Part shown: positions 1,459 through 41,631 of the stretch, one piece after another
Numbering within the stretch: the first letter of the stretch is position 1
Layout: every line of letters starts with the position of its first letter
Sequence record: MT446420.1
DNA from: Escherichia virus TH54
DNA length: 64,000 nt
Direction: 5' to 3' (one strand)
Notes under the pieces: generated by a model
Database searches by the model: none
Told to the model about the DNA's origin: nothing
What the model saw: the letters and a program-made list of their open reading frames with translations, nothing else
Position numbers and translations under genes: made by a program

Positions 1459-1929
1459 TTAATCATGTTTCCACACCCCATCGGTATTTGACCAAAGTCG
1501 CTGATTATCTGACCCTCGCCACAGTTTTTTGGTCGGAAGATTTTTCTCATACTTCCCATCAATAATAACATCAACATATTTAAGCATTTCTAGTTGTTTA
1601 ATATCTTCAAACTTATATCCCGTCCACATCCAAATGCTTTTATTGGGATAAAGATTTTTAATAGTTTGAACCACAGAGTGAATAACATCTCGGTTATCAG
1701 GATAGAGAGGGTCTCCTCCGGTTATAGTTAATCCTTCTATATAATCATTATTCAAACATTCAATTAATTGTTCTAGTGTTTCACCAGTAAATGGAACACC
1801 ATTTCTAGCATTCCATGTTGATTTATTATAACACCCTTCGCATTTATGCAAACAACCTGTAACGAAAAGAACGACCCTGCATCCAGGGCCATTTACAAAA
1901 TCGCAAGGATAAATTCTATCATAATTCAT
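1459..1929 (-). CDS. nrdG: anaerobic ribonucleotide reductase activating protein (radical SAM)
   Basis: CxxxCxxC-type Cys cluster; size and position as T4 NrdG. Confidence 0.93.
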   Translation of the reverse strand: MNYDRIYPCDFVNGPGCRVVLFVTGCLHKCEGCYNKSTWNARNGVPFTGETLEQLIECLNNDYIEGLTITGGDPLYPDNRDVIHSVVQTIKNLYPNKSIWMWTGYKFEDIKQLEMLKYVDVIIDGKYEKNLPTKKLWRGSDNQRLWSNTDGVWKHD

Positions 1930-3743
1930 TGGTGTTTAACCCTATGCATGATTTCTTTATTTTTGCCGAGATTAAATCCGCGTTCGTTCGGATTTCCCAA
2001 ATAACCACAAGTTCTTCTTATTGTGTTCATCTTTTTAGGGTCAGTTTCTCCACAAATAGAACAAACAAATCCGTTTTCAGTAGGAGTCATTTCATGGGTA
2101 CTTCCACATGTAAAACATTTATCTACTGGCATATTAACACCAAAATAATCTAAATGTTGTGCAGCATAATCCCACACAGCCTCAAGACCTTTTAGATTAT
2201 TTTTCATATCAGGAAGTTCAACATAAGAAATATGTCCGCCTGTCGCAATGAAATGATATGGTGCTTCGCGAGAAATCTTTTCAAACGGGGTGATATTTTC
2301 TTCTACTGAAACATGGAAACTATTAGTGTACCAGCCTTTATCAGTAACATCTTTTACACTTCCATATTTTTCAGTATCAAGTTTACAGAAGCGATAGCAC
2401 AGGTTTTCAGCAGGAGTAGAATACAAGCTAAAAGCAAAACCGGTTCTTTCGGTCCACTGCTTAAGACGAGCATTCATTTTAGTTAAAATTTCTTGCCCAA
2501 TATCACGACCGACAAGAATATTCAATTCGTGAATACCAATGTATCCCAAAGACACTGAACTTCTACCGTTTTTAAATAACTCAATTATATCATCATCGGG
2601 TTTAAGACGAACCCCGAATGCACCTTCTTGGTAAAGAATAGGAGCAACAGTCGCTTTAACTCCTTTTAAGGAATTAATTCTACACATCAAAGCTTCAAAA
2701 CACAAATCCATTCGCTCATTGAACAATTCAGTAAATTTCTGTTCATTGAACTGTGTTCCAATATAAGAATCTAACGCAATACGAGGAAGATTCAGTGTTA
2801 CAACGCCAAGATTATTACGCCCATCAAGAATTTCATTACCAGTCGAATCTTTCCATACGCCCAAGAAACTACGGCAACCCATTGGAGAAACAGGAATAGA
2901 TGAACCGGTGATAGCTTTGTTATTCTTAGCCGAAATGATGTCAGGATACATTCTTTTGCTTGCACACTCTAAAGCAAGCTGCTTAATATCATAGTTCGGG
3001 TCGTCTTTATAAAGATTAACACCTTCTTCAACGAACATAACAAGTTTAGGGAAAATAGGAGTTATCCCATCACGACCAAGACCTTTAATACGATTTTTCA
3101 GAATTGCTTTCTGAATCATTCGTTCAGTCCAATCAGTTCCCGTACCAAATGTAATGGTTACAAAAGGCGTTTGTCCATTTGAACTAAAGAGAGTATTTAC
3201 TTCATATTCATAAGCTTGGAATGCATCGTATACGTCTTTTTCTGTTTTAGATTGGGCATAATTCAATGCATCAGTGATTTGCCATTTTTCTGCGTCTTCA
3301 ATATGTTTTGCGTATGTACGTTTAACATAAGGAGAAAATACTTTGTCTACATTAGCAAAAGTCGTTCCGCCATATTGGTGAGAAGCAACCTGTGCAGTAA
3401 TTTGTGCCATAATTGCAGTAGCAACACCAATTGATTTAGGAGTTTCAATCTGTGCATTACCGAGTTTAAATCCGTTCTCAAGCATTCCTTTTAAATCTAC
3501 TAAACAGCAATTAGTAAATGGAAGAGCAGGGGAATAATCAATATCATGGAAATGAATAATTCCACTTTCATGTGCTTTCATAATAAAAGACGCAACCATA
3601 TTTTTGGCAATGTGTTTAGATACAATACCAGCCATAAGGTCACGTTGAGTTGGAAAAACACGAGAATCTTTATTAGCATTCTCGTTTAAAAGGTCTTTAT
3701 TAGTTTTATGAATCAATCCTTCAATTTCGTTTTCAATTGTCAT
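1926..3743 (-). CDS. nrdD: anaerobic ribonucleoside-triphosphate reductase, 605 aa, uninterrupted
   Basis: 605 aa as T4 NrdD; C-terminal glycyl-radical motif RRTCGYLG; C-terminal Cys cluster. Confidence 0.95.
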   Translation of the reverse strand: MTIENEIEGLIHKTNKDLLNENANKDSRVFPTQRDLMAGIVSKHIAKNMVASFIMKAHESGIIHFHDIDYSPALPFTNCCLVDLKGMLENGFKLGNAQIETPKSIGVATAIMAQITAQVASHQYGGTTFANVDKVFSPYVKRTYAKHIEDAEKWQITDALNYAQSKTEKDVYDAFQAYEYEVNTLFSSNGQTPFVTITFGTGTDWTERMIQKAILKNRIKGLGRDGITPIFPKLVMFVEEGVNLYKDDPNYDIKQLALECASKRMYPDIISAKNNKAITGSSIPVSPMGCRSFLGVWKDSTGNEILDGRNNLGVVTLNLPRIALDSYIGTQFNEQKFTELFNERMDLCFEALMCRINSLKGVKATVAPILYQEGAFGVRLKPDDDIIELFKNGRSSVSLGYIGIHELNILVGRDIGQEILTKMNARLKQWTERTGFAFSLYSTPAENLCYRFCKLDTEKYGSVKDVTDKGWYTNSFHVSVEENITPFEKISREAPYHFIATGGHISYVELPDMKNNLKGLEAVWDYAAQHLDYFGVNMPVDKCFTCGSTHEMTPTENGFVCSICGETDPKKMNTIRRTCGYLGNPNERGFNLGKNKEIMHRVKHQ

Positions 3744-4213
3744 TTTAAACTCTTTCTAAGCTGCTTCTTAAATGAAGCCATTAATTGTGTTTTGGTGTCA
3801 GATTCATTATAAGTCATACCATTCAAAAGCATTTCCCGAATCATTTCTTCTTTCCCCAGACGACCGAACTCTTTGGCTTTGTCTGTTACAAAATTGGGGT
3901 GAATATTGTTTTCGGTATAATCAGATTTCAGATAGACAAGCAAACTCTCTAACCATTCCAGGTAGTCAACATCGCGACTTTTTAGACCCGAACGGCTGAA
4001 CTTATGCTTCATTTGTCCTTCTGTTCCATTGCACAGATTGCATAGTAACCCGCGAACCTTACCGGCTTTTGGTCCGTTCAATTCGTGGTCATGGTCAAGA
4101 TGGTTGGCCTGAACATCGGAGTCCAAATCACGGTGACAAATTGGACACTTACCAGCTTGTGCATCATAAAGTTTTTGTTTTTCTTCTTTGTATAATTTGC
4201 CAGTCAACAACAT
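3740..4213 (-). CDS. 49: endonuclease VII (Holliday junction resolvase)
   Basis: 157 aa, near-identical to remembered T4 gp49 (MLLTGKLYKEEKQKLYDAQ...). Confidence 0.95.
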   Translation of the reverse strand: MLLTGKLYKEEKQKLYDAQAGKCPICHRDLDSDVQANHLDHDHELNGPKAGKVRGLLCNLCNGTEGQMKHKFSRSGLKSRDVDYLEWLESLLVYLKSDYTENNIHPNFVTDKAKEFGRLGKEEMIREMLLNGMTYNESDTKTQLMASFKKQLRKSLK

Positions 4214-4518
4214 AATAAACCCTTACCATTATTAGATAAGGGTATTTATTAATATCCTAATAGTTTAGCAGTGCAACTTAGCACTAACAACAATCCGAAT
4301 AAAGCAACTCCGGCCCAAAATACCGTAATAAGAGCATCCATATCAGACCCCGTAGAACGAGCGATGTAACCGTTTAAATTGACGAATCATCTTTTTGGTA
4401 GGACGGGTATACAATCCCACACAGGTGGCCATAAACTGGTCAGTAGGGCTTCCTTTGATAAGAAGTTTCCAGACCTTGTCACCGTTTAACTTTTCGGTAT
4501 AGACTAATGCAGTTTTCA

Positions 4519-4791
4519 TTAAACAATCCTAAAACAAGGATAATGACATTCAACGTTACCATTATCAATTATCATATACTCAGTGATACAGGTCCATGAC
4601 CCTTCAATTTCTATGGTATCAAAAAGGTATTCATCTGTTTCAACAACGTCCCAAACATTACATTCAACATCAGGGTCAAAACGTTGTCTTAACGCATGGA
4701 TAACATCACCATTTTTAAATCCTGCGTCTTGAAGCTCTTTCATAAAACCTGATTGATCAGCAGCATGAATATTAACAATTTCTAAAAACAT
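4519..4791 (-). CDS. hypothetical protein, 90 aa
   Basis: ORF track. Confidence 0.55.
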   Translation of the reverse strand: MFLEIVNIHAADQSGFMKELQDAGFKNGDVIHALRQRFDPDVECNVWDVVETDEYLFDTIEIEGSWTCITEYMIIDNGNVECHYPCFRIV

Positions 4792-5081
4792 TAAAAGACC
4801 TCATCAGAAAAGCGGAGTTGAGCTTCAAGCCAATGAATGTAGTCAGCTGCAGCAAAAATCAAAGCAGATTCTTCATCAGGTAACTTACGGGAATCCGACA
4901 ATTCATAAAGTGAATGTTCAATCAGACGGCCTTTATGACGGCCAACTTCAATTTTGGTACTCATATCCAAACTCCATATCGATTAAATCATTGTTTGAAG
5001 GTTCATTATAATCTATTTCGGAATCGTTGTAAACCGGTTCCTCTGGCTCGACGGTTTCCCATCGAGCGGTATACCATGGTT

Positions 5082-5402
5082 TTATAGCGTAATCCATTCT
5101 CGGATAGTTTGGGTTACGACACGTTCTTGGAGCTTAACCAGTTCAACAGTCGGGACCATATGGTCCCAGTCAGTATGATAAGAGCCGGTACGAGTTTCGT
5201 TTACAGACACATGCACATTATGTTTTTTGCTGAAATAAATTGCCTGGCGATATTGGTATTTGCCGGTTTGTGTCCATTCACCTAATTCAACCGGAACCAG
5301 GTAGTCCGAAAATTCAAACTCGTATGATTCAGTAAACGCATCATGGTCTTCAATGATTTCGCTTAAAACAGCATCAACATCTAATTCATTTTCAATAGTC
5401 AT
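5082..5402 (-). CDS. hypothetical acidic protein, 106 aa
   Basis: ORF track. Confidence 0.55.
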   Translation of the reverse strand: MTIENELDVDAVLSEIIEDHDAFTESYEFEFSDYLVPVELGEWTQTGKYQYRQAIYFSKKHNVHVSVNETRTGSYHTDWDHMVPTVELVKLQERVVTQTIREWITL

Positions 5403-11134: not shown

Positions 11135-11881
11135 ATGATTTTATCCGGAAGAACTGTTGATGAACTCAATGAAAAAGTCCAGGCTGCCTTGGCTAATAAT
11201 TGGTATTTGTTTGGTTCGACTATGGTGTTGCCGAATACCCCTACGGATAGCAAAGAGCGTTTTTTCCAAACTATGTCCAGCTCGGAAACTCAGATACCGG
11301 GTCCACCTGGTCCCAAAGGAGAACCGGGTGTACCAGGACCAAAAGGAGACCCAGGTGGGGATGGAAAATCTTCTTATCAGATATGGCTTGACTTGGGAAA
11401 TACAGGAACTGTTGATGATTTTTTAACTGATACAGCAGGAAAGAGGGAAAAATCCGAGGTGTTTTGGAGTGGTATAAACGTTCTATTAACCAATGGTGTG
11501 ACTTCAAACATAATTAGTGTTTTAAAGGGGATTCCACCGACTGCAGGGACTCTATCTCCGTTTTTTAGAACCACTGATGATAAGTTGTGGCCATATAACC
11601 AAGACAGAAGCCTAATGTTTAAACTCAACCTTATTGGTAATTTTGCAGGAGCCTCGCAAGCTCGAAGTATAACATTAAATTTCGTTGGAACCAACGGAAA
11701 CACTTATATACAGAATCGTCCGGAAAATGCTACAGATATTTTGTCTTTTACAACGTTCTTTAGCATTGATAAAGATGGGGCAATGGCAACCAATGGTACA
11801 GCTATAACTGTTATGCCAAATGGCGGCAACTTTACAATAACCTCTGCATTGTTAGTAGCCGAACAAACAGTGACTTCATAA
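11135..11881 (+). CDS. collagen-like repeat protein (Gly-X-Y x8) with beta-rich C-terminal domain; opposite strand to flanking genes
   Basis: GPPGPKGEPGVPGPKGDPGGDG repeat; AGGAG RBS; terminator hairpin downstream. Confidence 0.7.
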   Translation: MILSGRTVDELNEKVQAALANNWYLFGSTMVLPNTPTDSKERFFQTMSSSETQIPGPPGPKGEPGVPGPKGDPGGDGKSSYQIWLDLGNTGTVDDFLTDTAGKREKSEVFWSGINVLLTNGVTSNIISVLKGIPPTAGTLSPFFRTTDDKLWPYNQDRSLMFKLNLIGNFAGASQARSITLNFVGTNGNTYIQNRPENATDILSFTTFFSIDKDGAMATNGTAITVMPNGGNFTITSALLVAEQTVTS

Positions 11882-11883
11882 AC

Positions 11884-11905
11884 AAAAAAGGGCCGTATGG
11901 CCCTT
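11884..11905 (-). terminator. bidirectional rho-independent terminator (GGGCC-GTAT-GGCCC flanked by A6/T-run)
   Basis: GC hairpin plus T-run on minus strand. Confidence 0.65.
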
Positions 11906-12146
11906 AGATTGCACTCCAAAAATTATGGAATCTTATAGTATTGATAGCCCAGTTAACAAACCTGCGAGTTTGCTTGGGAGTTGGTTTGCATATGTACTTG
12001 ATATTGACCCGACGACCAGTTTCACGACAGACTGCTTCGAGATACCAGCGGCGACCTTTATGAGGTCTTCCATACGATAAGAAGACCTTGATTTCCTGGT
12101 TATCGATAATAGGAATTGTGGTTGTCAAGATATACCTCCTCAACAA
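11904..12146 (-). CDS. hypothetical basic protein, 80 aa (may be spurious)
   Basis: ORF track. Confidence 0.3.
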   Translation of the reverse strand: MLRRYILTTTIPIIDNQEIKVFLSYGRPHKGRRWYLEAVCRETGRRVNIKYICKPTPKQTRRFVNWAINTIRFHNFWSAI

Positions 12147-13110
12147 ACTTGTCCCAGAACTTCATGTCCACCTTCGCAGGCATACCATTCTTAGCAGCCC
12201 AGATGGCATTAGTTTCGACTTCATCAACGATAGCTTCAAGTTCAGCCTGTACATCTTTAAAAGCATGTAACCCTTGTTTGATTTCAAGGATAAACGGTGC
12301 TGTTCGTAAAGGATATTGAAGGTCACCGGTCATATAAATTTCCTTCAGCTGATATCCAGCTCGATAAGCATGACTCAATGCTTTCCAGTCAATACCTTCA
12401 TTCGCTTCGGCCTTACGAGCACGTTCACCATATTCGGCATCAAGTTTATTCAGAGATTGCTTGAGCTCGATTAAAGACAGAGTAGTTTGGTATTTACGAC
12501 CGAGGACAGTATAGAACGTTTGAGGACCTGTTTTCTCATGGTTATGAAATACCCATTCACAGAACTCGTTTTCAGGGAGCCGGTGCTTAATATCTTCTAC
12601 CTTAGTACGTCGTTGCTTAGTAGAACCATCTTCTTGATAATCGACCCATTGTTCAGGAATCTGGTTAACGATTTCCAATACACCACGCAGTGCAGCCAAT
12701 CGAGAACCTTTAACACCATATTTGGAAGCTTGCTTGCGGACATACCCCAAATAGGCTTTCATGTTGGTTGTATAGAACCGCGAACGGTTATCCTGAATAA
12801 ACTTCCATACATCTGGTAAATCGGATTTGACAACCAGGTCAGCCGGCGTGTGAATCATGTCCAGAGCAACGGTTTCGCCTTCGGCCGCCAGTTTAAAGAA
12901 ATATTTCAGACTATAAAGTTCATGGTCAACATCATCTTTTGTATTTTTGGTAGCCGTGTTATTCGTGTTCAGGTTGGTATGGTTCATCGCCGTCCCAAGT
13001 AGAATATCACGAGGATGTGGAACAAAGATTTCTTTAAAATCGACATCAGATTCTGGGGTACTTGTTCCATAAAGGTGGCTACCGAAGTAGCCTTTCATAA
13101 TAGTTTTCAT
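12100..13110 (-). CDS. Pol-beta superfamily nucleotidyltransferase-like protein, about 336 aa
   Basis: GSHLYGTSTPESDVDF (GS-x10-DxD) motif near N-terminus. Confidence 0.7.
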   Translation of the reverse strand: MKTIMKGYFGSHLYGTSTPESDVDFKEIFVPHPRDILLGTAMNHTNLNTNNTATKNTKDDVDHELYSLKYFFKLAAEGETVALDMIHTPADLVVKSDLPDVWKFIQDNRSRFYTTNMKAYLGYVRKQASKYGVKGSRLAALRGVLEIVNQIPEQWVDYQEDGSTKQRRTKVEDIKHRLPENEFCEWVFHNHEKTGPQTFYTVLGRKYQTTLSLIELKQSLNKLDAEYGERARKAEANEGIDWKALSHAYRAGYQLKEIYMTGDLQYPLRTAPFILEIKQGLHAFKDVQAELEAIVDEVETNAIWAAKNGMPAKVDMKFWDKFVEEVYLDNHNSYYR

Positions 13111-13559
13111 TCTTTGTCCTCGAAGTGGATTACTGGGCACATCTTAAATTTACGAGCTTTAATATATTGAATGAAAACATTTTCTTTAATTTCCTTTCCT
13201 TCACGTTTAGCTTTAATGCGTTCCCATTCTTTTTCTTCTTTACGTAAATCGTACCAGGCCCATAAATTCATTATACAATATACAATACCGACGGCTACCG
13301 CTAGAATAAGAGCCAGTGTAACCAGTCCTAAAATAAAACCTAAACTTAAGCCAACAGGAGTACTCAATACAAAGAACTGCTCCAATATACCAGCACCTGC
13401 AACAGTTAAGCCGAAAATAGTACTACCTGCAAGCACAGAACACATAAAGCACACCCAAACCATTTTCCAGAAGTATGCGCATAATGAGCGTGGACGTGAA
13501 TAACTGGCATAAAAACGGTCGTGTAATTTAACGTGCCAAGAGTTTGAATTGATAATCAT
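13107..13559 (-). CDS. membrane protein, 150 aa
   Basis: multiple hydrophobic helices. Confidence 0.6.
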   Translation of the reverse strand: MIINSNSWHVKLHDRFYASYSRPRSLCAYFWKMVWVCFMCSVLAGSTIFGLTVAGAGILEQFFVLSTPVGLSLGFILGLVTLALILAVAVGIVYCIMNLWAWYDLRKEEKEWERIKAKREGKEIKENVFIQYIKARKFKMCPVIHFEDKE

Positions 13560-13569
13560 AATATTTTCC

Positions 13570-14130
13570 TTAAGAGTTCATAGTTGGGATAACAGAGTTC
13601 AGATAAGAGACTAAAACTTTTAGCTCGTCTTTAGTAAATACCACTTCACTTTCGCCGTCATGTCTTTGGACAATGGACAACAAGTCACGGCCGTTATGTT
13701 GATGCACAGTCAGTTCAGTATTATAATCTAATTCCTCTTCATCGCCTTCAAACGTTTCGCTAGAGCGAATCAGTGCGTCTTGTCCTGGGACTTTCCATTC
13801 AACTTCTGGTTTACATTCTTCCTGGAACAGTTTGAAAATACAATCAAAGAATTTATCAGAATCGCTGATGCTCAGACATTCAATACCATTTTCTAAATTA
13901 AACCCGTTTTCGTTTTTATAGATATAGGCATACATATCATCATTGATATCAACAGGAGCACTAGCACGACCATTAAGATAATCGTGTCTATCCAAAACCA
14001 TTAAATCATAAAGCGGTTTAATATCAGCGATAGTCAGTACGATTTTATCGTCTTCTTGACAAAGCTCAATTGCGTTATTAACTACTTCAGCGGTCAGTTC
14101 GCCAAACAATTCAGTTGTTTCAATAATCAT
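13570..14130 (-). CDS. hypothetical acidic protein, 186 aa
   Basis: ORF track. Confidence 0.6.
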   Translation of the reverse strand: MIIETTELFGELTAEVVNNAIELCQEDDKIVLTIADIKPLYDLMVLDRHDYLNGRASAPVDINDDMYAYIYKNENGFNLENGIECLSISDSDKFFDCIFKLFQEECKPEVEWKVPGQDALIRSSETFEGDEEELDYNTELTVHQHNGRDLLSIVQRHDGESEVVFTKDELKVLVSYLNSVIPTMNS

Positions 14131-17361: not shown

Positions 17362-17564
17362 TTCAGTTCACCATATCGTACAAATTCAGGGTGTTCACAA
17401 TCACCAGAATGGAGACCTTCACCTTCATGGTTAGGACATCCTTTATTAGAACAGTACCACCAGTAATCAAATCCACATTCCATTTCATCGTTGCATAAAA
17501 CTGCGATTACTGGCCATTCGCATTTTTCACATTTGGCCGTTTTAAGAATTCGGGCTTGGCTCAT
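17358..17564 (-). CDS. Cys-rich small protein, 68 aa
   Basis: CEKC...CNDEMEC...CSNKGC...CEHP. Confidence 0.55.
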   Translation of the reverse strand: MSQARILKTAKCEKCEWPVIAVLCNDEMECGFDYWWYCSNKGCPNHEGEGLHSGDCEHPEFVRYGELK

Positions 17565-18015
17565 AATCCACCACTATTAAATCAATATCAGGAGTAAACA
17601 TGTCGATTAATTTAGAAACCTTATCCCAATCGCCGCCAGCAATACCACAACCAATACGAGGAATATAAATTACCGGTTTAAACAAAAGGGTTTCTGCCTG
17701 TAGATTTAATTCTATCATACAATTTACTAAAGCGCCATAATCAAGATTAGGGCCCGGTTCATATTGGGTGTACAAATTATAACACATACCAAACCCAGTA
17801 GGCTTATGTTTAAAAACAATAGACATATCACCGAGTTTTTCTCTGGAACCATATTCAGTAGTGGTTTTATCTATTTCTAAAACTTTTGGATAAGCCTTCG
17901 CCAACTGTCCAGCTACGCCAGAACCCATTGTGTGAAAGCAGTTGCAACCATGTGCAATAATATTGCCTTGAAGAAAGAGGGCGACAATATCGCCCTTAAT
18001 ATACTGGGTAATCAT
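17542..18015 (-). CDS. macro-domain (ADP-ribose binding/processing) protein
   Basis: HGCNC...MGSGVAGQL and IPRIGCGIAGGDW motifs. Confidence 0.75.
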   Translation of the reverse strand: MITQYIKGDIVALFLQGNIIAHGCNCFHTMGSGVAGQLAKAYPKVLEIDKTTTEYGSREKLGDMSIVFKHKPTGFGMCYNLYTQYEPGPNLDYGALVNCMIELNLQAETLLFKPVIYIPRIGCGIAGGDWDKVSKLIDMFTPDIDLIVVDYEPSPNS

Positions 18016-19441: not shown

Positions 19442-20021
<580 letters not shown>

Positions 20022-20025
<4 letters not shown>

Positions 20026-23910: not shown

Positions 23911-24494
23911 TTACGGCATTCCTCAATAAAAGAGTTCAATGTATTTTTCTTGGCGATATCGTCGTATACCTTTTTAACTTTAGAAATACGAAAAGGTACT
24001 TCAATAACCATAGTCCATAAAAGTGATGCAATAAGTCCAACAGCAGCAGAAGAAATGCACGCGCCCATTACAGCTACAGGTGCTTCATTTTTACCTGTCA
24101 GGAAAAACCACAGGATTGGTAAAAATAAGATTCCAGCCCATGCATAAAACCTGGAACAAATTAACTTATCAAATTCATCTTTCCAGGTACGAAATCCATA
24201 TTTCTTGCTATAAGAAATTAATGGGTCTGGTGTCTGTTCTTTGAGTGGTTCTGGTTGATGCCCATTAATGATGTATCCCATTTTATATTCCTTAATTAAA
24301 AGCTCTTTCATATGACGATTGCATCGCGACCAATCAACATTTTCAACCTTGATTCCTTCATCACCATCATCAAGGTTCGCCCAATATTTTTTGGCAATCA
24401 TAAATTCGTCTCTTGATACAATTATACCTGTATTTTCTGGGCGACGGATGAAGTTTACATCAACACCCATACACCCAGGTTCATAAAGGGCCAT
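23907..24494 (-). CDS. membrane protein with C-terminal FIEECRK tail
   Basis: TM helices; tail shared with 27832..29060 proteins. Confidence 0.6.
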   Translation of the reverse strand: MALYEPGCMGVDVNFIRRPENTGIIVSRDEFMIAKKYWANLDDGDEGIKVENVDWSRCNRHMKELLIKEYKMGYIINGHQPEPLKEQTPDPLISYSKKYGFRTWKDEFDKLICSRFYAWAGILFLPILWFFLTGKNEAPVAVMGACISSAAVGLIASLLWTMVIEVPFRISKVKKVYDDIAKKNTLNSFIEECRK

Positions 24495-25183
24495 TACCAG
24501 CCCTCCATGGGGAATTCCAGATATACTTGAGCATTAACGCGGATTTCATTGGTAACTTTATTAACACGGTCAGTTTTACGAGATACGCGACCAAACCAGC
24601 GCCAACCGTTACTAACTGTTTTTGTTCCAGTATGCCAGGTCTGCCAGTTGAATTCACATAATGTGCGGTCAGGAGCTTCTTGAACTAAAAGTTCACCCGC
24701 CTTGATTTTTTCCAGAACTTCCTGGTGCCACTGGCGATAGATAAGTTCGCCATCAGGAATCTGACTGAATTCTGCAGTTCCAAGAGCAAAATTAGTAGGG
24801 CAAACAGAAGCGTTAACCAGACCCAGGATGTGTTCAGAATGGTAACGAGGGTTATCATAATCAGGTTGTCCTGCTGTAATAAAATGTTGTCCTGCTGGAA
24901 TATCTGGTCGCGGTACGTCATCATGGTGATATCCAGGGATAGCAGGATACCAACCAGGCATTAACATGTGTACACGGGAATCAAATACAATATCAGGGCC
25001 ACATTGCCAATCTTCAGGCAGGTTTTCAATAAAGCTACGAGTAATAGGACCGCCATGCTTATGCGCAAATTCTGGATAGCAGTTAAAGAACATGGGCTCA
25101 TTTTTAATCATATCATTACTGATATCTTGAGCAAATTGACCAACTTCACGCATTTGACTATTAAAAGTTTTTGGACTGTTCAT
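24494..25183 (-). CDS. hypothetical protein, 229 aa
   Basis: ORF track. Confidence 0.65.
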   Translation of the reverse strand: MNSPKTFNSQMREVGQFAQDISNDMIKNEPMFFNCYPEFAHKHGGPITRSFIENLPEDWQCGPDIVFDSRVHMLMPGWYPAIPGYHHDDVPRPDIPAGQHFITAGQPDYDNPRYHSEHILGLVNASVCPTNFALGTAEFSQIPDGELIYRQWHQEVLEKIKAGELLVQEAPDRTLCEFNWQTWHTGTKTVSNGWRWFGRVSRKTDRVNKVTNEIRVNAQVYLEFPMEGW

Positions 25184-26573: not shown

Positions 26574-26808
26574 TTAGCAGCTACTCGGATACCAGATTTT
26601 ACCATCGGCACGAGCAACGAAGGTACGACCAGCTTCTTCACCATAACAAGAGCTGTTCAACCAGTCTTCAAGACGGACTTCGCCGTCATAATCATCAAGC
26701 TCAACACCAAAATCTTGAGCAGAAGCCATATCTTTTACTTTCTTATACAGTGCAGCCAGTTCAAGGGCAGCTTTTTCTAATTCAGCATGTTCAACAGCAG
26801 TAGTCATT
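26574..26808 (-). CDS. small protein, W-x-SS-C tail family member A (ends KIWYPSSC)
   Basis: tandem paralog; start trimmed. Confidence 0.55.
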
Positions 26809-26817
26809 TTTATTTCC

Positions 26818-27045
26818 TTAGCAAGACATAGAGGAGTTAAACCAGAAACCTTTACCATCTGGGATACCATAATCACCGCGAATCCAGTCATACTCTTCGT
26901 ATTCTGGACAACCCGCAGGAATATATCGTTGAAGACTGTCAGCATACACATGAAAGTATTCACCAGTTTTATCGGCCAGTTGTTCACCTTCACAGATTAG
27001 TGCACGGATTTGGTCTTCAATTTCTTTAACAGTTTTAGCAGTCAT
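26818..27045 (-). CDS. small protein, family member B (ends FWFNSSMSC)
   Basis: tandem paralog. Confidence 0.6.
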   Translation of the reverse strand: MTAKTVKEIEDQIRALICEGEQLADKTGEYFHVYADSLQRYIPAGCPEYEEYDWIRGDYGIPDGKGFWFNSSMSC

Positions 27046-27261: not shown

Positions 27262-27543
27262 TTAACATTCAACAGAAGAGGACACCCAACCACCATTTTC
27301 CAGGTCAGTTGTATAGTCATGAGTATTAACAATAGCCCATTCAGGATGACCATGTTCTTCCCAATGAGCAAGGTCGGCTTTCAAGGCGCCAGGAGAATAA
27401 TAGTCACCGCCCATACCGCGAGCAGGGTATATATTAAAATGAGTCTCATATTTGTCTGCAATTTCCTCGGCACGACGAATAGCTTTATGGATATCATTTA
27501 CTGCGGCCAGAAGCTCTGGTTGGTTATGGTTATCATTCATCAT
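27262..27543 (-). CDS. small protein, family member D (ends GGWVSSSVEC)
   Basis: tandem paralog; start trimmed. Confidence 0.6.
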   Translation of the reverse strand: MMNDNHNQPELLAAVNDIHKAIRRAEEIADKYETHFNIYPARGMGGDYYSPGALKADLAHWEEHGHPEWAIVNTHDYTTDLENGGWVSSSVEC

Positions 27544-27544
27544 A

Positions 27545-27835
27545 TTAGCACACCTCAGAAGAGGAAACCCAGGCACCAACAGTAACAATGCCGTTTTCAA
27601 CTTGCCCGCCGTTGTTTTCAATATGGTGGGCGAACCATTCGGAACATTCATAACCGACTGGGTGATATGTACGGCCGGTGCCGTAATCGCCAGTGCTGAA
27701 TTCGATACCATATTCATCTGCGATTTCTTCACAGTGTTTTTCAATTTCAGAGGTCTTATTTAGAAGAGAATAGATAGCTTTTTCTGCAGATTTCTCATCA
27801 TAATACTTGGGGATAGCAATTTCAATTTTATTCAT
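27545..27835 (-). CDS. small protein, family member E (ends GAWVSSSEVC)
   Basis: tandem paralog. Confidence 0.6.
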   Translation of the reverse strand: MNKIEIAIPKYYDEKSAEKAIYSLLNKTSEIEKHCEEIADEYGIEFSTGDYGTGRTYHPVGYECSEWFAHHIENNGGQVENGIVTVGAWVSSSEVC

Positions 27836-28185: not shown

Positions 28186-28531
28186 TACGAACCTCCTTAA
28201 TAAATTCTTCGGCACATTTAATTTTGTGCTCTTCTTGTAGGGAAACACATTTTTGTTCCCACGCTTTAACTCGCCCGCGATAACCTTTATTCATATGATT
28301 TTGATGCCACACGTTTATCAATAACATGCTCAGGACTGTAATAAAAGGTGCTGCAATTACTAGCGTCCAGGCGACTCCAACACTAATGATATTCATATCT
28401 CCACAAAGCACCATCATTATAACCCCAACGATGCACATGGACAGAGCTCCAAATGGAGGCATAAGGTCTTTATCAATCTTGTCTGCGTATACAAATTTTT
28501 CTGGTTTACTTGGCAGATATAACGTTCGCAT
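28172..28531 (-). CDS. membrane protein with C-terminal FIKEVRNG tail
   Basis: TM helices; start trimmed. Confidence 0.55.
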   Translation of the reverse strand: MRTLYLPSKPEKFVYADKIDKDLMPPFGALSMCIVGVIMMVLCGDMNIISVGVAWTLVIAAPFITVLSMLLINVWHQNHMNKGYRGRVKAWEQKCVSLQEEHKIKCAEEFIKEVRNGTA

Positions 28532-29060
28532 TTTGAACCTCTTTAGCATATTCACGACATTCAGCAATAAAACGATTAAGCTTACGTTTCCGTTTACGAC
28601 ATTCTAATGTGTACTCAGCCGCCAAATCAAAAAGCTCATCTTTATCATAATTTTTAATATCAGTATAAGTTGGGCGGCGGTCAACCATTCCAAAGTGGTC
28701 ACCATTTTCCAACATCAAATAACACACCAAATGGTCATCATCGTCCGCATTAATAAGCTGCTTATAATCACTTGGTTCATTTAACGCATACACAGAATAA
28801 CTCAGTCCAGCGAATTCCACTCGTTGAATACCCAGATTTACATCAATAATTTCCAAGGCATCTGCGAAAGAAAGGTCTTCAGCTAAAGCAAAAATAAAAG
28901 GCAATTTGGTAGTATCACCGCGACTTGTTGTTCTTCTTAAGAAATCATTGGAATAGCCCAGGTCACCACGGATTCTATAAAGAACTGTATTAGTTTCAGT
29001 GGCAAGACCGCTACCACCAAACCAGTCTACATTTGATATAAGGTCAGTGTATAAGCTCAT
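28506..29060 (-). CDS. hypothetical protein with C-terminal FIAECRE motif
   Basis: ORF track, start trimmed. Confidence 0.55.
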   Translation of the reverse strand: MSLYTDLISNVDWFGGSGLATETNTVLYRIRGDLGYSNDFLRRTTSRGDTTKLPFIFALAEDLSFADALEIIDVNLGIQRVEFAGLSYSVYALNEPSDYKQLINADDDDHLVCYLMLENGDHFGMVDRRPTYTDIKNYDKDELFDLAAEYTLECRKRKRKLNRFIAECREYAKEVQNANVISAK

Positions 29061-29104
29061 AATTTTCTCCTCTCCCAATTAGGGGGCAAAGCCCCCATTT
29101 TATC

Positions 29105-29773: not shown

Positions 29774-30172
29774 TTATTTCATTTTTGCGAGGCAGATTTC
29801 ATTGGCTTCCCATTGAGCTTGCTTAATAATAGCTTTGGATACAGGAACCTTTTGACCATAAGTTTTTGACGTTGAGAGAACAATATATTTGTTTGCCTCA
29901 TTATGCCAACCCCATGATTTTTCGCCATGAGTACCTTTAACAACAGCTGACACCTCAACAGAACAACCATCAGCGCCAATCTTGGTATCAACAATCCATT
30001 CATTTCGCTTAATTGCTGCTTCCAATGTTGCTGCTTCCGCCATCCAGTGCGTTTCAGGGTCTATTTGTTCAATCTCACGAGTTAACGCAACTCCCAGGTC
30101 TTTTGCATATTTTTGTTGTTCAGGAGTTAATGAATCATATAACTTCTTCATTTCTTTATCTTCAATATTCAT
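29774..30172 (-). CDS. hypothetical protein, about 132 aa
   Basis: ORF track trimmed; GGA RBS. Confidence 0.55.
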   Translation of the reverse strand: MNIEDKEMKKLYDSLTPEQQKYAKDLGVALTREIEQIDPETHWMAEAATLEAAIKRNEWIVDTKIGADGCSVEVSAVVKGTHGEKSWGWHNEANKYIVLSTSKTYGQKVPVSKAIIKQAQWEANEICLAKMK

Positions 30173-30206
30173 AATATTTTCCTCAAGGGGCTTTCGCCCC
30201 AATCAT

Positions 30207-30594: not shown

Positions 30595-31026
30595 TTAAAT
30601 TTCAAATTCTTTGCGGAAGTTGGAAGCATAAGACTGAACTGATGCTTTGTTGAATCCAAACTCACGCACAATCATATCAATAACAGCTCTACGAGCAGCA
30701 CCATTAGACATATTGACAGTTTTGAACATATCATAGCATAAATCTTTGTTGCTCATGCCGGAGCGTTTAGGTGCCTTACGTTCAGCTTTAGGAGTAGGTT
30801 TAACTTCTGGTTTAACCTGTCCATCATTCAGACCTTTAAAAATTTTACCTGCCAGCGTTGCCAGTTTAGCAGCTTCGCCACGAGTGATACCAAATACTGC
30901 CGGGTTAAATGAAATACCTTCAGCTGTCAGACGTTTGAAGAACATACGTGCTGCGGATTGTGCTTCAGCTTCAGAAGAGTTGTTTAATGCCAGTTTAATG
31001 TACTTAACCAGTTTTGAAGTTTTCAT
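30595..31026 (-). CDS. hypothetical protein, 143 aa, C-terminal domain shared with 31479..31904
   Basis: shared ...AARRA.ID..V......QSYASNFRK. Confidence 0.65.
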   Translation of the reverse strand: MKTSKLVKYIKLALNNSSEAEAQSAARMFFKRLTAEGISFNPAVFGITRGEAAKLATLAGKIFKGLNDGQVKPEVKPTPKAERKAPKRSGMSNKDLCYDMFKTVNMSNGAARRAVIDMIVREFGFNKASVQSYASNFRKEFEI

Positions 31027-31099: not shown

Positions 31100-31396
31100 T
31101 TAATTTTCAGAAGTTGGGAAATAAACTTCAAAGTCATACATGTTTACTACCGCAGACGCGATTGCCTGGTACTGCATACCTAAGAAAGTTTTCTTATTCT
31201 TGCGCCACAAGTTAACCATTTCTGTTTTGATGCATGCCAGGGAATAGTTGGATGCAGGATACTGTTTGATGATTGCAACAACTTCTTCAGAAGCAGTTTC
31301 ACACAATTCATTCAGTTGAGCTTCAATTTTAGCAGAAATGATTGCTTTGTTTTCTTCTTGAGCTTGGGTAGCGTGCCATGCAGGTGCGTTAAACAT
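31100..31396 (-). CDS. hypothetical protein, 98 aa
   Basis: conserved leader upstream. Confidence 0.6.
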   Translation of the reverse strand: MFNAPAWHATQAQEENKAIISAKIEAQLNELCETASEEVVAIIKQYPASNYSLACIKTEMVNLWRKNKKTFLGMQYQAIASAVVNMYDFEVYFPTSEN

Positions 31397-31478: not shown

Positions 31479-31904
31479 TTATTTTTGAGCTTTGCGGAAG
31501 TTGGAAGCATAAGACTGAACAACAGTCTTTTTGATATCATGGGTGGTAACCAGAACATCAATCAGAGCGCGTCGAGCTGCATTATCATTCATATCAATTT
31601 CTGCAAATGCCTGGAAGCAAATGTCACGGGCGTTACCCGATTTGGACCGGATTTTTTCTTCTTTAACTTCTTCAATTGGGAATTCAATCATTTCAGCTTG
31701 GATTAATTCAATGATAGATTCTTTTGACTGTTTGGTGTTTACCTTCAGTTCAGAATTAAGGGACTTGGCGATGGCAACAATCTGGGTTGAAGTCAGATGA
31801 ATAAGTGCATCTTCACGAATGCAGATTTCACATACTTCGTCAGCAACCATTTTGTTGGTGATGCGGGTAACAGAGAATGCAGAGGTCAGGGTCAGAAAGT
31901 TCAT
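31479..31904 (-). CDS. hypothetical protein, about 141 aa, paralog of 30595..31026
   Basis: start trimmed to ATG after conserved leader. Confidence 0.65.
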   Translation of the reverse strand: MNFLTLTSAFSVTRITNKMVADEVCEICIREDALIHLTSTQIVAIAKSLNSELKVNTKQSKESIIELIQAEMIEFPIEEVKEEKIRSKSGNARDICFQAFAEIDMNDNAARRALIDVLVTTHDIKKTVVQSYASNFRKAQK

Positions 31905-31985
31905 TTTATTTCTCCAAAGTTTTGTTTGATTCAGTGTGTAACTCAGTATGGAATCATTATGCACCCGGTCAATTCGGATGTACAC
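31905..31985 (-). promoter_or_regulatory. early promoter/leader cassette
   Basis: conserved element. Confidence 0.5.
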
Positions 31986-32966: not shown

Positions 32967-33043
32967 TGGTCGGGGTGGTGGGATTCTAACCCACAACCTA
33001 CGGTTTAGAAGACCGTTGCTCTATACAATTGAGCTACACCCCG
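32967..33043 (-). tRNA. tRNA-Arg (anticodon TCT), CCA encoded
   Basis: hand-folded cloverleaf: acceptor CGGGGTG/CACCCCG, D-stem GCTC/GAGC, anticodon loop CTTCTAA, T-stem GTGGG/CCCAC. Confidence 0.8.
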
Positions 33044-33045
33044 GG

Positions 33046-33119
33046 TGGCCCCATCCGGACTTGAACCGGAAACCTGCCAGTTATGAGCCGGATGCTCTAA
33101 CCAATTGAGCTACAGGGCC
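33046..33119 (-). tRNA. tRNA with anticodon CAT (Met or Ile2)
   Basis: hand-folded cloverleaf: acceptor GGCCCTG, D-stem GCTC/GAGC, anticodon loop CTCATAA, T-arm TCCGG-TTCAAGT-CCGGA. Confidence 0.75.
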
Positions 33120-33514: not shown

Positions 33515-33991
33515 TTAAAGCATATCAAGTGCTTTAACGGATGGGATTTGGATTTCTTCTTCAATGATGTATAGCTTAACATAAGAAATTACACGCATGA
33601 AATCACCATCATATTCACAAGCCATACCTAAAAGTTCGGTCAGGGCTTCATTTAGGTAGTATTCTTCATCATCGCCATTTAGCAATGCATCTAAATCTTC
33701 TACACCCAGAACCTTACTTAAAAATTCATGGGTTAACTGACCAGATTTTACACCAGATGCAATGTGGGCGATAACCAAGTGTTTAACCACATCCCATTCT
33801 GAATTACCACATTTATTGTGGTTGTTGCAATGCGAACCATGGAAAAGTTCCAGGATATATTTGTACTGTTGAATTTCTTGTTCTTCTACACCAAATACAG
33901 TCTGGGTTTTATAATTATCACCATCATTTTCCCAGGTTTCAATTTCAATCACATAACCTTTAGGGATGGTCTGACCAAATTTGATATTCAT
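33515..33991 (-). CDS. hypothetical protein, 158 aa
   Basis: ORF track. Confidence 0.6.
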   Translation of the reverse strand: MNIKFGQTIPKGYVIEIETWENDGDNYKTQTVFGVEEQEIQQYKYILELFHGSHCNNHNKCGNSEWDVVKHLVIAHIASGVKSGQLTHEFLSKVLGVEDLDALLNGDDEEYYLNEALTELLGMACEYDGDFMRVISYVKLYIIEEEIQIPSVKALDML

Positions 33992-35913: not shown

Positions 35914-36601
<688 letters not shown>

Positions 36602-36602
<1 letters not shown>

Positions 36603-37279
36603 TATATTACCTTATTAATTTTATCAAAAAGTTCTTCGAGTGTGCCATTGTTTTTAATAACAATGTCACTAGCTAGTGGTGGAAGTCCAGCTTCCGTAAT
36701 GTGTGTATCAGTAGAATGATTTGCTTCATCGCGTTCTACAAAAATTATTGTAGCACCCATCGCCCGAAGCGAATCAAGTTCGTTCTTTTGGCGAACATCA
36801 GGGACAACGTAATATTTATATCCAGAATAAAGGTTGTCAAGATAGTCGCATGCAAAAGTTTTAATCCAAAACATGCTGTCGAACTCTGTACAAACGATGT
36901 CAGTTCCAAGGGTCTGCATGAAACGTCTAACCGTCCAGGGCTCAACATTATTTAGTGTGTGAAATTCAATGATTTTACGAACCATATCTGGATTCGGAAG
37001 GTCAAGATTGTATTGTTGTTTCAACCATTCAAGAGCATCAACCAGAAGAATATAAGCTTCGGTGTTGTTCATTATCAAGGTTTTTTCACGGTCATAACCT
37101 TGTCCATCAAAATTTTCCAGGGTCAAATTGTGTGGTAGGTCTTGACGAATCCACGCTTTATAAAGCGCTTCTTTAATCGGACCCGCAAGCTGCCACTTTG
37201 TTCCGTTTTGACTAATAACATAATCAGCAGTCGTATCTTTACCACTGCGTTTTTTACCCACAATCGCAATTAATTTCAT
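36602..37279 (-). CDS. 1: deoxynucleoside monophosphate kinase
   Basis: Walker A GKKRSGKDT; synteny. Confidence 0.92.
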
Positions 37280-37875
37280 ACGTTTCTCATAGATGGATGC
37301 ATTGACTTAGACCTGATTTCCTGTTGCATTGCTGCATTACTATCAATCTGTGGTCTACCTTCTATTATTATACCATCAATTTCTACAGCAAAAGACTTGA
37401 AGTTGAAAGTTGCTGTTGCGTTGATAGCCGGGTCAGAATCTTCTTTATATGAATACTGAATCTCTGACAGGTCGGACGGCCATGCTCCATAGTAATGGAT
37501 TGACATGACAATTTTGTCCTTGTTGTTATCTAAGATATGAAGCGTGACCGCTTCGGGACGACCCTTCGGATGCCATGCTTTTGATTCGTGTGTGATGTAG
37601 TTGTTGAGCGAGAGCATCCATTTATAGATGTCAAGCCACGCTCTTAAGTCTTTGTCACACAGAAAGTTAACAATCAGTGGGTCGAATTCTATTGTACTAC
37701 CAGGAAGACTGGAGCGATTTATACCTTGTGTTCCCCCAGGGACATCCGTCACAGGAATGTGAACTCCAGGGAGGGTAACGTCTTGAACGTTGAGTTTAAA
37801 GGTCTGTGTGAGGTTTGAATCGCTTACCTCTAATATAAAGTTAGTCGTGTTAGTTTGATTATATAAACCTGACAT
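37276..37875 (-). CDS. 3: tail completion / sheath stabilizer gp3
   Basis: synteny between 1 and 2; start trimmed from 38037. Confidence 0.8.
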   Translation of the reverse strand: MSGLYNQTNTTNFILEVSDSNLTQTFKLNVQDVTLPGVHIPVTDVPGGTQGINRSSLPGSTIEFDPLIVNFLCDKDLRAWLDIYKWMLSLNNYITHESKAWHPKGRPEAVTLHILDNNKDKIVMSIHYYGAWPSDLSEIQYSYKEDSDPAINATATFNFKSFAVEIDGIIIEGRPQIDSNAAMQQEIRSKSMHPSMRNV

Positions 37876-37960: not shown

Positions 37961-38794
37961 TTATGAATTTCTCCATACTTTCTGGGAAGAGAATCTTTTG
38001 CCTTTCGACATAAATTGTTGCAACGGAAGCATAACAACGTTTGCCCAGTCGCTGGGCTTGATTTCAGTGATAGTACCTTTTATATTGCCAGGTATATATG
38101 CTTTAATCATCTGGTCAGCCCCTTTAAATCCCTTCACCTTTGACCAATCAATCTTTAGATGAGTCTTGTTTGTAATCGTAGGGGTATTAGCATATTGCTT
38201 AAGAAGTTCCTCAAGGAACTCTTGGCGTGCCTTCGGTGGAATATAGTGCAAGTTCAAACCATACATCAAATTATGCTTACCTAGACCAAGATAAATGATT
38301 AACGGATATTTGTCCCAGTATGGAAGAGTATCCTTATGCTTTGCATCATAGATATAAGCATAAAGTTTACCTGGTTGAGGTTTAGCCGTTACGTGGCCGC
38401 GAACTGATTTCTTAATTGTCTCTGCGAACCATCTGGCAGATTTGGTGTTGCTTGCAGCGCCTTCGTTGGCAATCTTATCTCTTATGCTCTTTCTAAAGCT
38501 ATTCACCATTATCAGCTGGCGTTCTGCCTTCGTAAGTTTACCAGCAGGTTTCTTTTTGAGTTTGGATACTTTATAAGCAGTCTGAATTCTCGAATTGTAT
38601 CTTGACATGCTTTTGGTAAAGGTCGAATAGTTGATTCCTTTCTCTTCAGCAAACTTCTTCGAGGTCATTCCCTTTTCTTTTGCTGTATAAAATTCAACCC
38701 CTATCTCAACCCATTGTTGTTCGGATTTACTGGGTTTCGGACCTGGTTTATCTACAGATTCATTGATAAATGTAAAAATACTCATCCTTTCCAT
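37961..38794 (-). CDS. 2: DNA end protector gp2
   Basis: 277 aa; synteny. Confidence 0.85.
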
Positions 38795-39231
38795 CCTAAT
38801 TTTTTCAGTGAGTTTTCAGTGATTATCCTGAACGTTATACCCATTTTATCTGCGGTAGCTTGCGCAGCTTTCCATTTGTCAGAGTTAACGCTCCAAGTGT
38901 ACATCTCGTTAATAAATCTCTTTTTACTCGCGGCTGTATTATTGACCGGTTTGGTTGGAGGTCTTGTTTCTTTTAATGGCTTAACTTCAAAAAAGAACTG
39001 TTGTCCTGTATCAAACTTAACCCAGAAATCCATATAATATCTGCGCTTTTTACCTTCAGCATTGCAGAAGTATGGAATAATCACAGTCTCAGAGCCCCAT
39101 TGAACAACGTTCGGATGGTTGTCTAGCCATCTCATCAGCCACGCCTCCCAGCTTGACCGGTATTGTATTTTCTTCCAGTCGCCCTTATATTTTTCTATAT
39201 TAGTGGGCTTAAATTTCCCGGAGTATGCCAT
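38782..39231 (-). CDS. 4: head completion protein gp4
   Basis: 149 aa; synteny; late promoter upstream. Confidence 0.88.
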
Positions 39232-39882: not shown

Positions 39883-41621
39883 TTAATATGTCAGATAATG
39901 TAAGTTGGTTCGTCGGGGTTGTTGAAGACCGAATGGACCCACTTCAGCAAGGTCGTGTACGTGTTCGCGTATGGGGTATGCATCCATATGAGAAAGCACA
40001 AGGGCCAGTAAAAGGTATCAGAACTGAAGACCTTCCTTGGATGTCAGTATTGATGCCAACATCATCTGCATCGGTTTCTGGAATTCAAACTGCCATGACT
40101 GGTATGGTCCCGGGAACCCAAGTGTATGGTCACTTTTTAGACAAGTGGAAGCTCAACGGTCTTGTCATTGGCACATATGGTTCAGCCTCAAGACAAAAAG
40201 CAAATCCTAACGAAGGTTTCTCTGACCCCACCGGGCAATATCCGCTTTATATAGGTAATGATGCTGCTGCGCTTAACCGTGGAGGCGAAGTCGGTTATGG
40301 TGCCACTTCGAACGTAATACAAGATGCAAACCTTGATTTGGGTATTAACCCGGATGGTCTTGATTTGAGTCAGGTTAAACCAGATGATAATCCTAATTTC
40401 ACAATTGAAAATATGCTTCATCGTGATGAAGGTCTTCGTTTGAAAGTATATTGGGACACCGAGGGTTATCCTACTATAGGTATAGGGCACTTAATTGCAC
40501 CACAACCTATTAGAGATATGAATCAGATAAACAAAATATTATCTAATCAAATAGGCCGTGAAGTTAAAGGTAACCCTGGTGCAATATCAATGGACGAGGC
40601 TTCTAAGTTATTCCAGGAAGACCTTAAAAAAGTCCAAAATGATATAGGCAAGCATAGTGTTGTAGGTCCGGTTTACAATAAAGAAAACCGTTCGAGACAA
40701 ATGGCTCTTGAAAACATGGCTTTCCAAATGGGATTAGGTGGATTGGCTAAATTCCGTGGAATGCTTAGTGCAATGTTAATAGGTGATTATAAGAAGGCAT
40801 TTGAGGAAGCTCGCAATTCAGTATGGTTTAACCAAACTAAAGGGCGTGCATCAAGAGTATCAATGATTATCCTTACCGGTAATATGGAATCATATGGTAT
40901 TATGGCCCCTAAAGAAAGAGAATTTAATGGCCGTTCTTATAGGATGATTCAAACCTTTGCAGCCCCTACAAATTCTGACCCGGCCGACCCGTGGACTCCA
41001 GAAGATACGAGGATTCTGTTTAAAGAACCAGAATCAAGTTACAAGGGTGAATATCCTTACGTGCAGACAATGCAAACTGAAGGCGGTCATATTCAGGAAT
41101 TCGATAATACACCCGGGCAAGAACGTTATCGACTGATTCACCCGACCGGGTCCTATGAGGAAGTTGCACCAGATGGCCGTAAAACTTCGAAGACTGTTGC
41201 CGATGGTTATTATATGACCCAGGGTGATTCGAGTACTTATGTTGGTGGTAATAATAAAGTCAACGTTGGCGGTGATGAAACCTATTACAATATGGCTAAT
41301 GTTCGACGTCAGACTGATGGAAACGAAAGTATTCATATCAGAGGGAATGAAACCAAAACTATCGAAGGTGATGGTACAATTATCGTCAAAGGTAATGTAA
41401 GTATTCTTGTCGAAGGTAATGCTGAAATAACTGTTAAAGGTGATGCAAAAACTCTTGTCGAAGGTAACCATGATTATACGGTAAATGGTAATGTCAAATG
41501 GTCTGTTAATGGAAACGTTGATATGACCGTGGCTGGCAATTGGTCCGAAACAATGTCAACAATGAGTTCAATTGCATCTGGTCAATATACTATTGATGGT
41601 TCGAGGATTGACATTGGCTAA
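39879..41621 (+). CDS. 5: baseplate hub / tail lysozyme and cell-puncturing spike gp5
   Basis: 580 aa; lysozyme core DEGLRLKVYWDTEGYPTIGIGH; C-terminal VxGxxxxx beta-helix repeats. Confidence 0.95.
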   Translation: MINMSDNVSWFVGVVEDRMDPLQQGRVRVRVWGMHPYEKAQGPVKGIRTEDLPWMSVLMPTSSASVSGIQTAMTGMVPGTQVYGHFLDKWKLNGLVIGTYGSASRQKANPNEGFSDPTGQYPLYIGNDAAALNRGGEVGYGATSNVIQDANLDLGINPDGLDLSQVKPDDNPNFTIENMLHRDEGLRLKVYWDTEGYPTIGIGHLIAPQPIRDMNQINKILSNQIGREVKGNPGAISMDEASKLFQEDLKKVQNDIGKHSVVGPVYNKENRSRQMALENMAFQMGLGGLAKFRGMLSAMLIGDYKKAFEEARNSVWFNQTKGRASRVSMIILTGNMESYGIMAPKEREFNGRSYRMIQTFAAPTNSDPADPWTPEDTRILFKEPESSYKGEYPYVQTMQTEGGHIQEFDNTPGQERYRLIHPTGSYEEVAPDGRKTSKTVADGYYMTQGDSSTYVGGNNKVNVGGDETYYNMANVRRQTDGNESIHIRGNETKTIEGDGTIIVKGNVSILVEGNAEITVKGDAKTLVEGNHDYTVNGNVKWSVNGNVDMTVAGNWSETMSTMSSIASGQYTIDGSRIDIG

Positions 41622-41631
41622 TATACTTCCA

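Follow-up and report, generated by a model that had tools for sequence, protein, structure and literature searches.

The nrdD gene analysed here is, with a probability of about 95%, an ordinary intron-less nrdD of a Gaprivervirus-type phage, lying in a window (the whole 64 kb stretch of DNA that was analysed) that is collinear with T4 and lacks all five of the T4 insertions, which is the common state and one to which T4 is the exception. The nrdD frame is intact, the insertion sites are empty and no homing endonuclease genes are detectable in the window. A preliminary description of the sequence had already held that NrdD reads through as one uninterrupted 605-amino-acid frame and that the phage lacks the selfish elements of T4 in this segment. 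Both statements are borne out, the former by a single open reading frame whose product gives a gapless alignment with spliced T4 NrdD (594/605 amino acids, 98.2%, and 1709/1818 nucleotides, 94.0%, identical) and the latter by inspection of all five T4 positions, which are empty. Its premises about T4 are likewise correct: in the RefSeq genome nrdD contains a group I intron of 1033 nt that encodes I-TevII, and mobC, mobD, segB and segC lie in the matching stretch. Coordinates of the features are collected in Table 1.

Table 1 Features of the window and positions corresponding to mobile insertions of T4
Feature	Position	Strand	Remarks
nrdG, activase	1459..1929	minus	Pfam Fer4_12 (E 6e-48) and Radical_SAM; 80% amino acid identity to T4 NrdG
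mobC slot (T4: between nrdG and nrdD)	1926..1929	minus	Empty; nrdG start overlaps nrdD stop
nrdD, class III (anaerobic) ribonucleotide reductase large subunit	1926..3743	minus	Single ATG-start frame, 605 aa, without internal stop
Empty intron insertion site	3205..3206	minus	After coding position 538 (538/539), ...GCTTATGAAT / ATGAAGTAAAT...; blastn blocks and splice-junction reconstruction
Gene 49, endonuclease VII, Holliday-junction resolvase	3740..4213	minus	Pfam Endonuclease_7 (PF02945, E 1.7e-18) and Endonuc-dimeris (PF09124, E 4e-24)
Collagen-like protein	11135..11881	plus	Tail-needle-knob domain
nrdC.11 homolog	12100..13140		Flank of mobD slot
mobD slot (T4: between nrdC.11 and mobD.1)	13107..13559	minus	150-aa hydrophobic ORF, without nuclease signature
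mobD.1 homolog	13570..14130		Flank of mobD slot
Orphan candidate ORFs	24494..25183, 26574..26993, 27262..27744, 28506..29078, 29774..30202, 30595..31026, 31479..31985, 33515..33991		
segB slot (T4: between tRNA-Arg and tRNA-Ile)	32967..33119	minus	Empty; tRNA-Arg(TCT) and tRNA-Met(CAT) abut at 33043/33044 (ARAGORN, Rfam)
gp3	37276..37875		
gp4, TnsA-like nuclease	38782..39231		Ordinary T4 core/accessory gene
segC slot (T4 order 5.1-segC-5.3-5.4)	41572..42446	plus	5.1 homolog (41572..42153) abuts 5.4 PAAR homolog (42153..42446)

nrdD, its product and the empty intron site

The product of nrdD falls into class III by family match, by solved-structure match, by residue motifs and by the adjoining radical-SAM protein NrdG. 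Its match to the Pfam family NRDD (PF13597) extends over residues 21–604 and model positions 1–562 of 562 (E 8e-170), a Gly_radical match (PF01228, E 2e-25) accompanies it, and the best solved structure is that of T4 NrdD (1h78; 1384 bits, residues 2–605). The spliced T4 coding sequence has the same length as the window gene, 1818 nt. Residues C79, C290, C543, C546, C561, C564 and G580, the last within RTCGYLG, are all there, and none of the 11 amino acid substitutions relative to T4 NrdD falls on C79, C290, the four zinc-site cysteines or G580. In the T4 protein we take C79 and C290 to be the active-site cysteines, C543/C546/C561/C564 to form the zinc site and G580 to be the glycyl-radical residue in the C-terminal RxCGY motif. 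Judged from its sequence, the window protein is probably an active glycyl-radical reductase. The overlap of the nrdG start with the nrdD stop measures 4 nt (1926..1929), and so does that of gene 49 with nrdD, as in T4. The gene requires no splicing; its mRNA is translated directly to the full large subunit of the class III reductase, and nrdG is the gene that follows.

Compared with the T4 gene by blastn, the window gene aligned in two blocks, coding positions 1–536 and 539–1818, which lie 1033 nt apart in T4. Reconstruction of the splice junction in T4 (GCTTATGAGT / ATGAAGTG, in which T is the last base of exon 1 and G the last base of the intron) puts the intron position directly behind coding position 538, which in the window corresponds to the step from base 3206 to base 3205. 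At the gathering threshold, Rfam found no group I intron (Intron_gpI, RF00028) in the 64 kb window, where it reported two tRNAs only; the identical scan of T4, used as a positive control, detects Intron_gpI at 105 bits. Neither by covariance model nor by interruption of the frame does nrdD carry a group I intron.

Three named systems place this gene. T4 nrdD (sunY; NC_000866, 43535..46385) shares with the window the gene order 49-nrdD-nrdG and a spliced product of 605 aa, but the T4 gene is interrupted behind coding position 538 by the group I intron of 1033 nt, which contains the GIY-YIG gene I-TevII, and T4 has mobC between nrdD and nrdG; the window lacks both. The nrdD of T2 (AP018813, 40833..42650) is, like that of the window, uninterrupted at 1818 nt and directly adjoined by nrdG, without mobC; the two genes differ at 86 nt over their length, and T2 is a Tequatrovirus whereas the nearest relatives of the window are of the Gaprivervirus type. 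The window and intron-less T2 have the same sequence from −45 to +27 relative to the insertion site, and because of this identity the empty site may be a target for I-TevII homing upon co-infection with an intron-carrying phage. T2 itself is said to have been proven experimentally, by Quirk et al. in 1989, to be a recipient of the nrdD intron. In Shigella phage JK45 (NC_054940), unlike in the window, nrdD does contain an intron; it is inserted at 538/539, identical to the T4-type site, measures 1045 nt, has 66% nucleotide identity to the T4 intron and carries an I-TevII-like gene of 56% amino acid identity.

Exon 2 of T4 nrdD is peculiar in the stretch that adjoins the insertion site. Between T4 and T2, 8 of the 44 differences in nrdD fall into the first 60 nt after the site (P 8.6e-5, or 0.003 corrected for 30 windows); between T4 and the window under study the figure is 10 of 109, which is marginal (corrected P ~0.1). 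All T4 differences in these 60 nt are synonymous. The cluster fits co-conversion of exon sequence along with the intron, a process described in review (PMC2988022), and is a peculiarity of T4, not a feature of the window.

A different history could produce the same gene: instead of having escaped invasion throughout, the lineage may have acquired the nrdD intron at some time and then undergone a precise loss, as recombination with an intron-less allele could bring about. Models of cyclical gain and loss exist for homing elements (PMC2988022 section 16), and the occurrence of two intron variants, those of T4 and JK45, at exactly one site points to a recurrent target. We nevertheless consider such a loss unlikely. 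The junction, where no sign of an exact loss would be expected in the sequence, bears no footprint, being gapless and matching intron-less T2 over the interval given above; moreover, all fetched clade relatives are intron-less, and the window does not share the T4-specific substitution cluster beside the site.

The remaining insertion positions of T4

Collinearity of the window with T4 extends over ~41.4–102.4 kb of the T4 map, from gene 55.6/nrdH to gene 20, as determined by tblastn of each called ORF against the reassembled T4 genome. In the matching stretch T4 has five mobile insertions, i.e., mobC, the nrdD intron with I-TevII, mobD, segB and segC (Table 1 of PMC2988022; T4 RefSeq), which total 3.5 kb or 5.8% of the matching T4 segment. 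The hydrophobic ORF that lies in the mobD slot of the window gave weak hydrophobic Pfam matches only. At the segC slot, the flanking homologs are 73% identical to T4 5.1 and 91% identical to T4 5.4 (tblastn), the 5.4 homolog containing a PAAR_motif, and T4 segC and 5.3 are both missing from the window. Of the window, 95% is taken up by called genes and tRNAs, and the longest stretch without an assignment measures 257 nt; there is therefore no space for an unseen gene.

Nucleases of the window and the search for homing endonuclease genes

We searched for homing endonuclease genes in 108 ORFs with a minimum length of 50 aa, obtained by greedy tiling of the whole window (longest first, overlaps >60 nt dropped), and in the six-frame translation. 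Among the tiled ORFs, Pfam (E ≤ 0.01) revealed no GIY-YIG, HNH, NUMOD or LAGLIDADG domains; gp3 had been discarded by the tiling, and its scan was against PHROGs alone. When Pfam was relaxed to E ≤ 1 for ten orphan ORFs, noise appeared and no sub-threshold nuclease signal, and PHROGs assigned the orphan ORFs to families of unknown function or to internal head proteins only, with no homing endonuclease among them. The best tblastn matches of all 15 T4 homing endonucleases to the window had E values of 0.084 (HNH) and 0.18 (GIY-YIG), whereas in T4 the same 15 queries detect their paralogs at E values of 1e-5 to 1e-31. A six-frame search at E ≤ 10 for decayed copies of the 15 genes gave short, scattered and random matches only. 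Six-frame hmmsearch with a GIY-YIG profile (T4 Seg/I-Tev) gave a best E of 3.3 in the window as against 5e-24 to 2e-43 for nine T4 genes, and with an HNH profile (T4 Mob) a best E of 0.28 as against 1e-17 to 5e-57 for T4 genes. Regular expressions for GIY...YIG and HH..P...N matched none of the six-frame fragments. No ORF of the window could be assigned to the GIY-YIG (I-TevI, I-TevII, SegA-G) or HNH (MobA-E, I-TevIII) homing endonucleases. These searches are based on similarity and would miss an undescribed homing endonuclease family among the orphan ORFs (~24.5–35.9 kb); they cover the window, and such genes may exist elsewhere in the genome.

The plus-strand ORF that encodes a collagen-like protein with a tail-needle-knob domain was considered as an endonuclease and rejected on account of that assignment. 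It runs opposite to its neighbours, like some mobile genes.

The similarity-based design leaves a place for a homing endonuclease that is too divergent or too new for the profiles and that hides among the orphan ORFs without T4 homolog. These orphans have neither a Pfam family nor a T4 match and belong to PHROG families of unknown function only, and new families of homing endonucleases are still appearing, e.g., DHHRN (PMC6083498). Even so, we regard a hidden endonuclease as very improbable. The relaxed Pfam scan of ten orphans and the six-frame searches yielded zero GIY-YIG or HNH matches, and most orphans, 90–190 aa in length, are situated in the variable region from e to the tRNAs, in which T4 likewise has many small genes of unknown function. 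Furthermore, the ORFs from 28506..29078 through 31100..31396, together with 24494..25183, fit PHROG families end to end, and ORFs up to 25 kb are located in the part of the window for which close relatives give an alignment; end-to-end fits and alignment with relatives suit resident accessory genes better than they do mobile insertions, which are sporadic. We would give equally little weight to two related ideas, namely that a clade-specific orphan at ~24.5–35.9 kb is a mobile nuclease from an undescribed family, which would take the place of the T4 Seg/Mob genes in the variable e-to-tRNA region, or that the five empty slots reflect an active barrier to homing in this lineage rather than non-exposure.

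Nucleases of other kinds do occur in the window. The product of gene 49 has the length of T4 gp49 (157 aa), shares 83% identity with it over 153 aa and, as read from the translation, has C23, C26, D40, H41, H43, R54, C58, C61 and N62 at the T4 positions. The gene lies directly upstream of nrdD, in the same place as in T4, T2, JK45 and the clade relatives. By published criteria (PMC6083498), gp49 belongs to the EndoVII resolvases, having the N-terminal CxxC...DHDH...R...CxxCN motif followed by the dimerisation domain. EndoVII adopts the beta-beta-alpha-metal fold that is common to HNH and His-Cys box enzymes, and the EndoVII motif is also used by the DHHRN homing endonuclease F-CphI; in enzymes of the F-CphI type, which as a rule are free-standing and encoded beside their target, the motif is situated at the C-terminus, and they form a clade separate from the resolvases (PMC6083498).

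On these grounds gene 49 might be taken for a DHHRN-type homing endonuclease like F-CphI rather than a resolvase: it has the EndoVII catalytic motif, which some homing endonucleases use (PMC6083498), and it adjoins nrdD, a classic homing target gene. We give this reading practically no credence, as the motif of gp49 is N-terminal, the C-terminus is the dimerisation domain of T4 EndoVII, and both the length and sequence of the protein and the 49-nrdD arrangement are conserved as described above, while the F-CphI-type enzymes are set apart by their C-terminal motif and their clade. Gene 49 is accordingly best regarded as the resolvase gene. The remaining nucleases, i.e., the TnsA-like gp4, DenV, RegB and the nuclease domain of the terminase (TerL), are encoded by ordinary T4 core or accessory genes.

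The preliminary description had reported no GIY-YIG or HNH endonuclease ORFs in the window. For homing endonucleases this stands, the HMM scan, PHROGs, tblastn and six-frame searches all being negative; taken literally, the part on HNH does not, since EndoVII encoded by gene 49 belongs to an HNH-related superfamily. The same description had named an endonuclease domain in one of the hypothetical ORFs as the observation that would overturn its claim, which is too loose a formulation: endonuclease domains exist in the window, and none is that of a homing endonuclease.

The intron-less state among T4 relatives

The window phage is T4-like and of the Gaprivervirus type (SP18, VR20, TH41). Over nrdG-nrdD-49, nucleotide identity reaches 97% to Shigella phage SP18, Yersinia phage vB_YenM_P8, Escherichia phage VR20 and similar phages, and over the first 25 kb of the window it amounts to ~92–95% to the SP18/P8/VR20 group; no database record is identical to the window. 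TH41, one of the close relatives, is classified as Gaprivervirus (Straboviridae, Tevenvirinae). Like the window, the Gaprivervirus-type phages (SP18, VR20, TH41 and vB_YenM_P8) have an intron-less nrdD, and the region fetched from them is without T4-type homing endonuclease genes; unlike the window, they carry behind e/nudE small ORFs that are additional or different and amount to a few kb. Endonuclease genes were also sought within the extra DNA of the larger genomes of relatives in the matching region, and none were present. In P8, TH41 and pEC-M719-6WT.2, T4-type endonuclease genes were not found in the matching 30–35 kb, nor were any found in the fetched region of T2.

Across the databases, the T4-type nrdD intron was present in 25 full-length records, as compared with ~950 records that match the nrdD region of the window. 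The intron-positive records comprise T4 stocks, RB55, RB59, PST, fPS-2, G8, U5, EC128 and a few more. A 300-nt probe spanning the spliced T4 junction was contiguous in 620 of 694 matching records and split in at most 67. Most T4 relatives are without the selfish elements, and the window phage is not peculiar in this respect. T4, with its 15 homing endonucleases, has been called ‘an oddity’, and ‘most genomes have few’ (PMC2988022); the standing of T4 as an outlier is already in the literature and the empty state of nrdD is known.

To the knowledge of introns and homing endonucleases the present analysis adds nothing. The window is handy as a negative control for homing endonuclease detectors, and in homing or marker-exclusion crosses with T4 the phage would serve as a recipient that is naturally devoid of intron and endonuclease. 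The window represents a clean, endonuclease-free version of the T4 segment from nrdH to gene 20, like that of most sequenced T4 relatives.

Sequence around the nrdD intron site

Eight of the 44 differences between T4 and the intron-less phage T2 fall within the first 60 nt past the insertion site (window 3146..3205, nrdD coding positions +1 to +60), and the same 60 nt hold 10 of the 109 differences between T4 and the window. These clustered T4 differences are synonymous without exception. The window, T2 and Yersinia phage vB_YenM_P8 (P8) have one version of this stretch in common, and the exon 2 flank of T4 (sequence L002) is the outlier. The clustered changes in this flank look like a co-conversion tract in T4.

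The nrdD junction is split in at most 67 of 694 phage records, and a T4-type intron is present in only 25. Shigella phage JK45 carries a second, diverged nrdD intron of 1045 nt (L006, the JK45 sequence, 2749..3793), inserted at precisely the position used in T4; it has 66% nucleotide identity to the T4 intron, and the I-TevII-like ORF inside it has 56% amino acid identity.

Other T4 insertion slots and a nuclease domain

In the tRNA region, T4 has eight tRNAs, segB and two small stable RNAs, whereas the window has only two tRNAs. The mobD slot is occupied by an ORF that lacks a homolog in T4 and gives weak, membrane-protein-like Pfam matches. A nuclease domain is present in gp4, though within a conserved morphogenesis gene.

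Features of the window discussed in the text
Feature	Position	Strand	Remark
Two DUF7279 ORFs	4343..4519 and 11904..12146		small, paralogous
pin (PinA Lon-protease inhibitor) homolog	4791..4970	-	59 aa
T4 49.1 homolog	4948..5097	-	49 aa; real gene at locus
Collagen-like/tail-needle-knob gene	11135..11881	+	248 aa; Phage_tail_NK, E 4.5e-31
ORF in T4 mobD slot	13107..13559	-	150 aa; strongly hydrophobic
Macro-domain protein (tk.4 homolog)	17542..18015	-	conserved T4 counter-defence gene
Acb2/Tad1-hairpin protein (vs.4 homolog)	19747..20025	-	conserved T4 counter-defence gene
tRNA-Arg (TCT), tRNA-Met (CAT)	32967..33119	-	directly abutting
Acb1 (57B homolog)	35914..36369	-	conserved T4 counter-defence gene
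gp4 head-completion protein	38782..39231	-	PF08722 hit at E 1e-21, the N-terminal domain of TnsA-like endonucleases

Other genes of the window

The pin homolog aligns with only the last third of its Pfam profile, at the C-terminal end, and P8 has this short form too. The longest ORF at the neighbouring locus, 4914..5087 (+), is an antisense artefact; the real gene there is the minus-strand T4 49.1 homolog. The tail-needle-knob gene, on the strand opposite to every early-region neighbour, encodes a Gly-X-Y collagen-like run followed by an Sf6-type knob domain; it lacks a T4 homolog and is present in the relatives P8 and pEC-M719-6WT.2. Known T4 counter-defence genes are kept in the window as homologs of 57B, vs.4 and tk.4.
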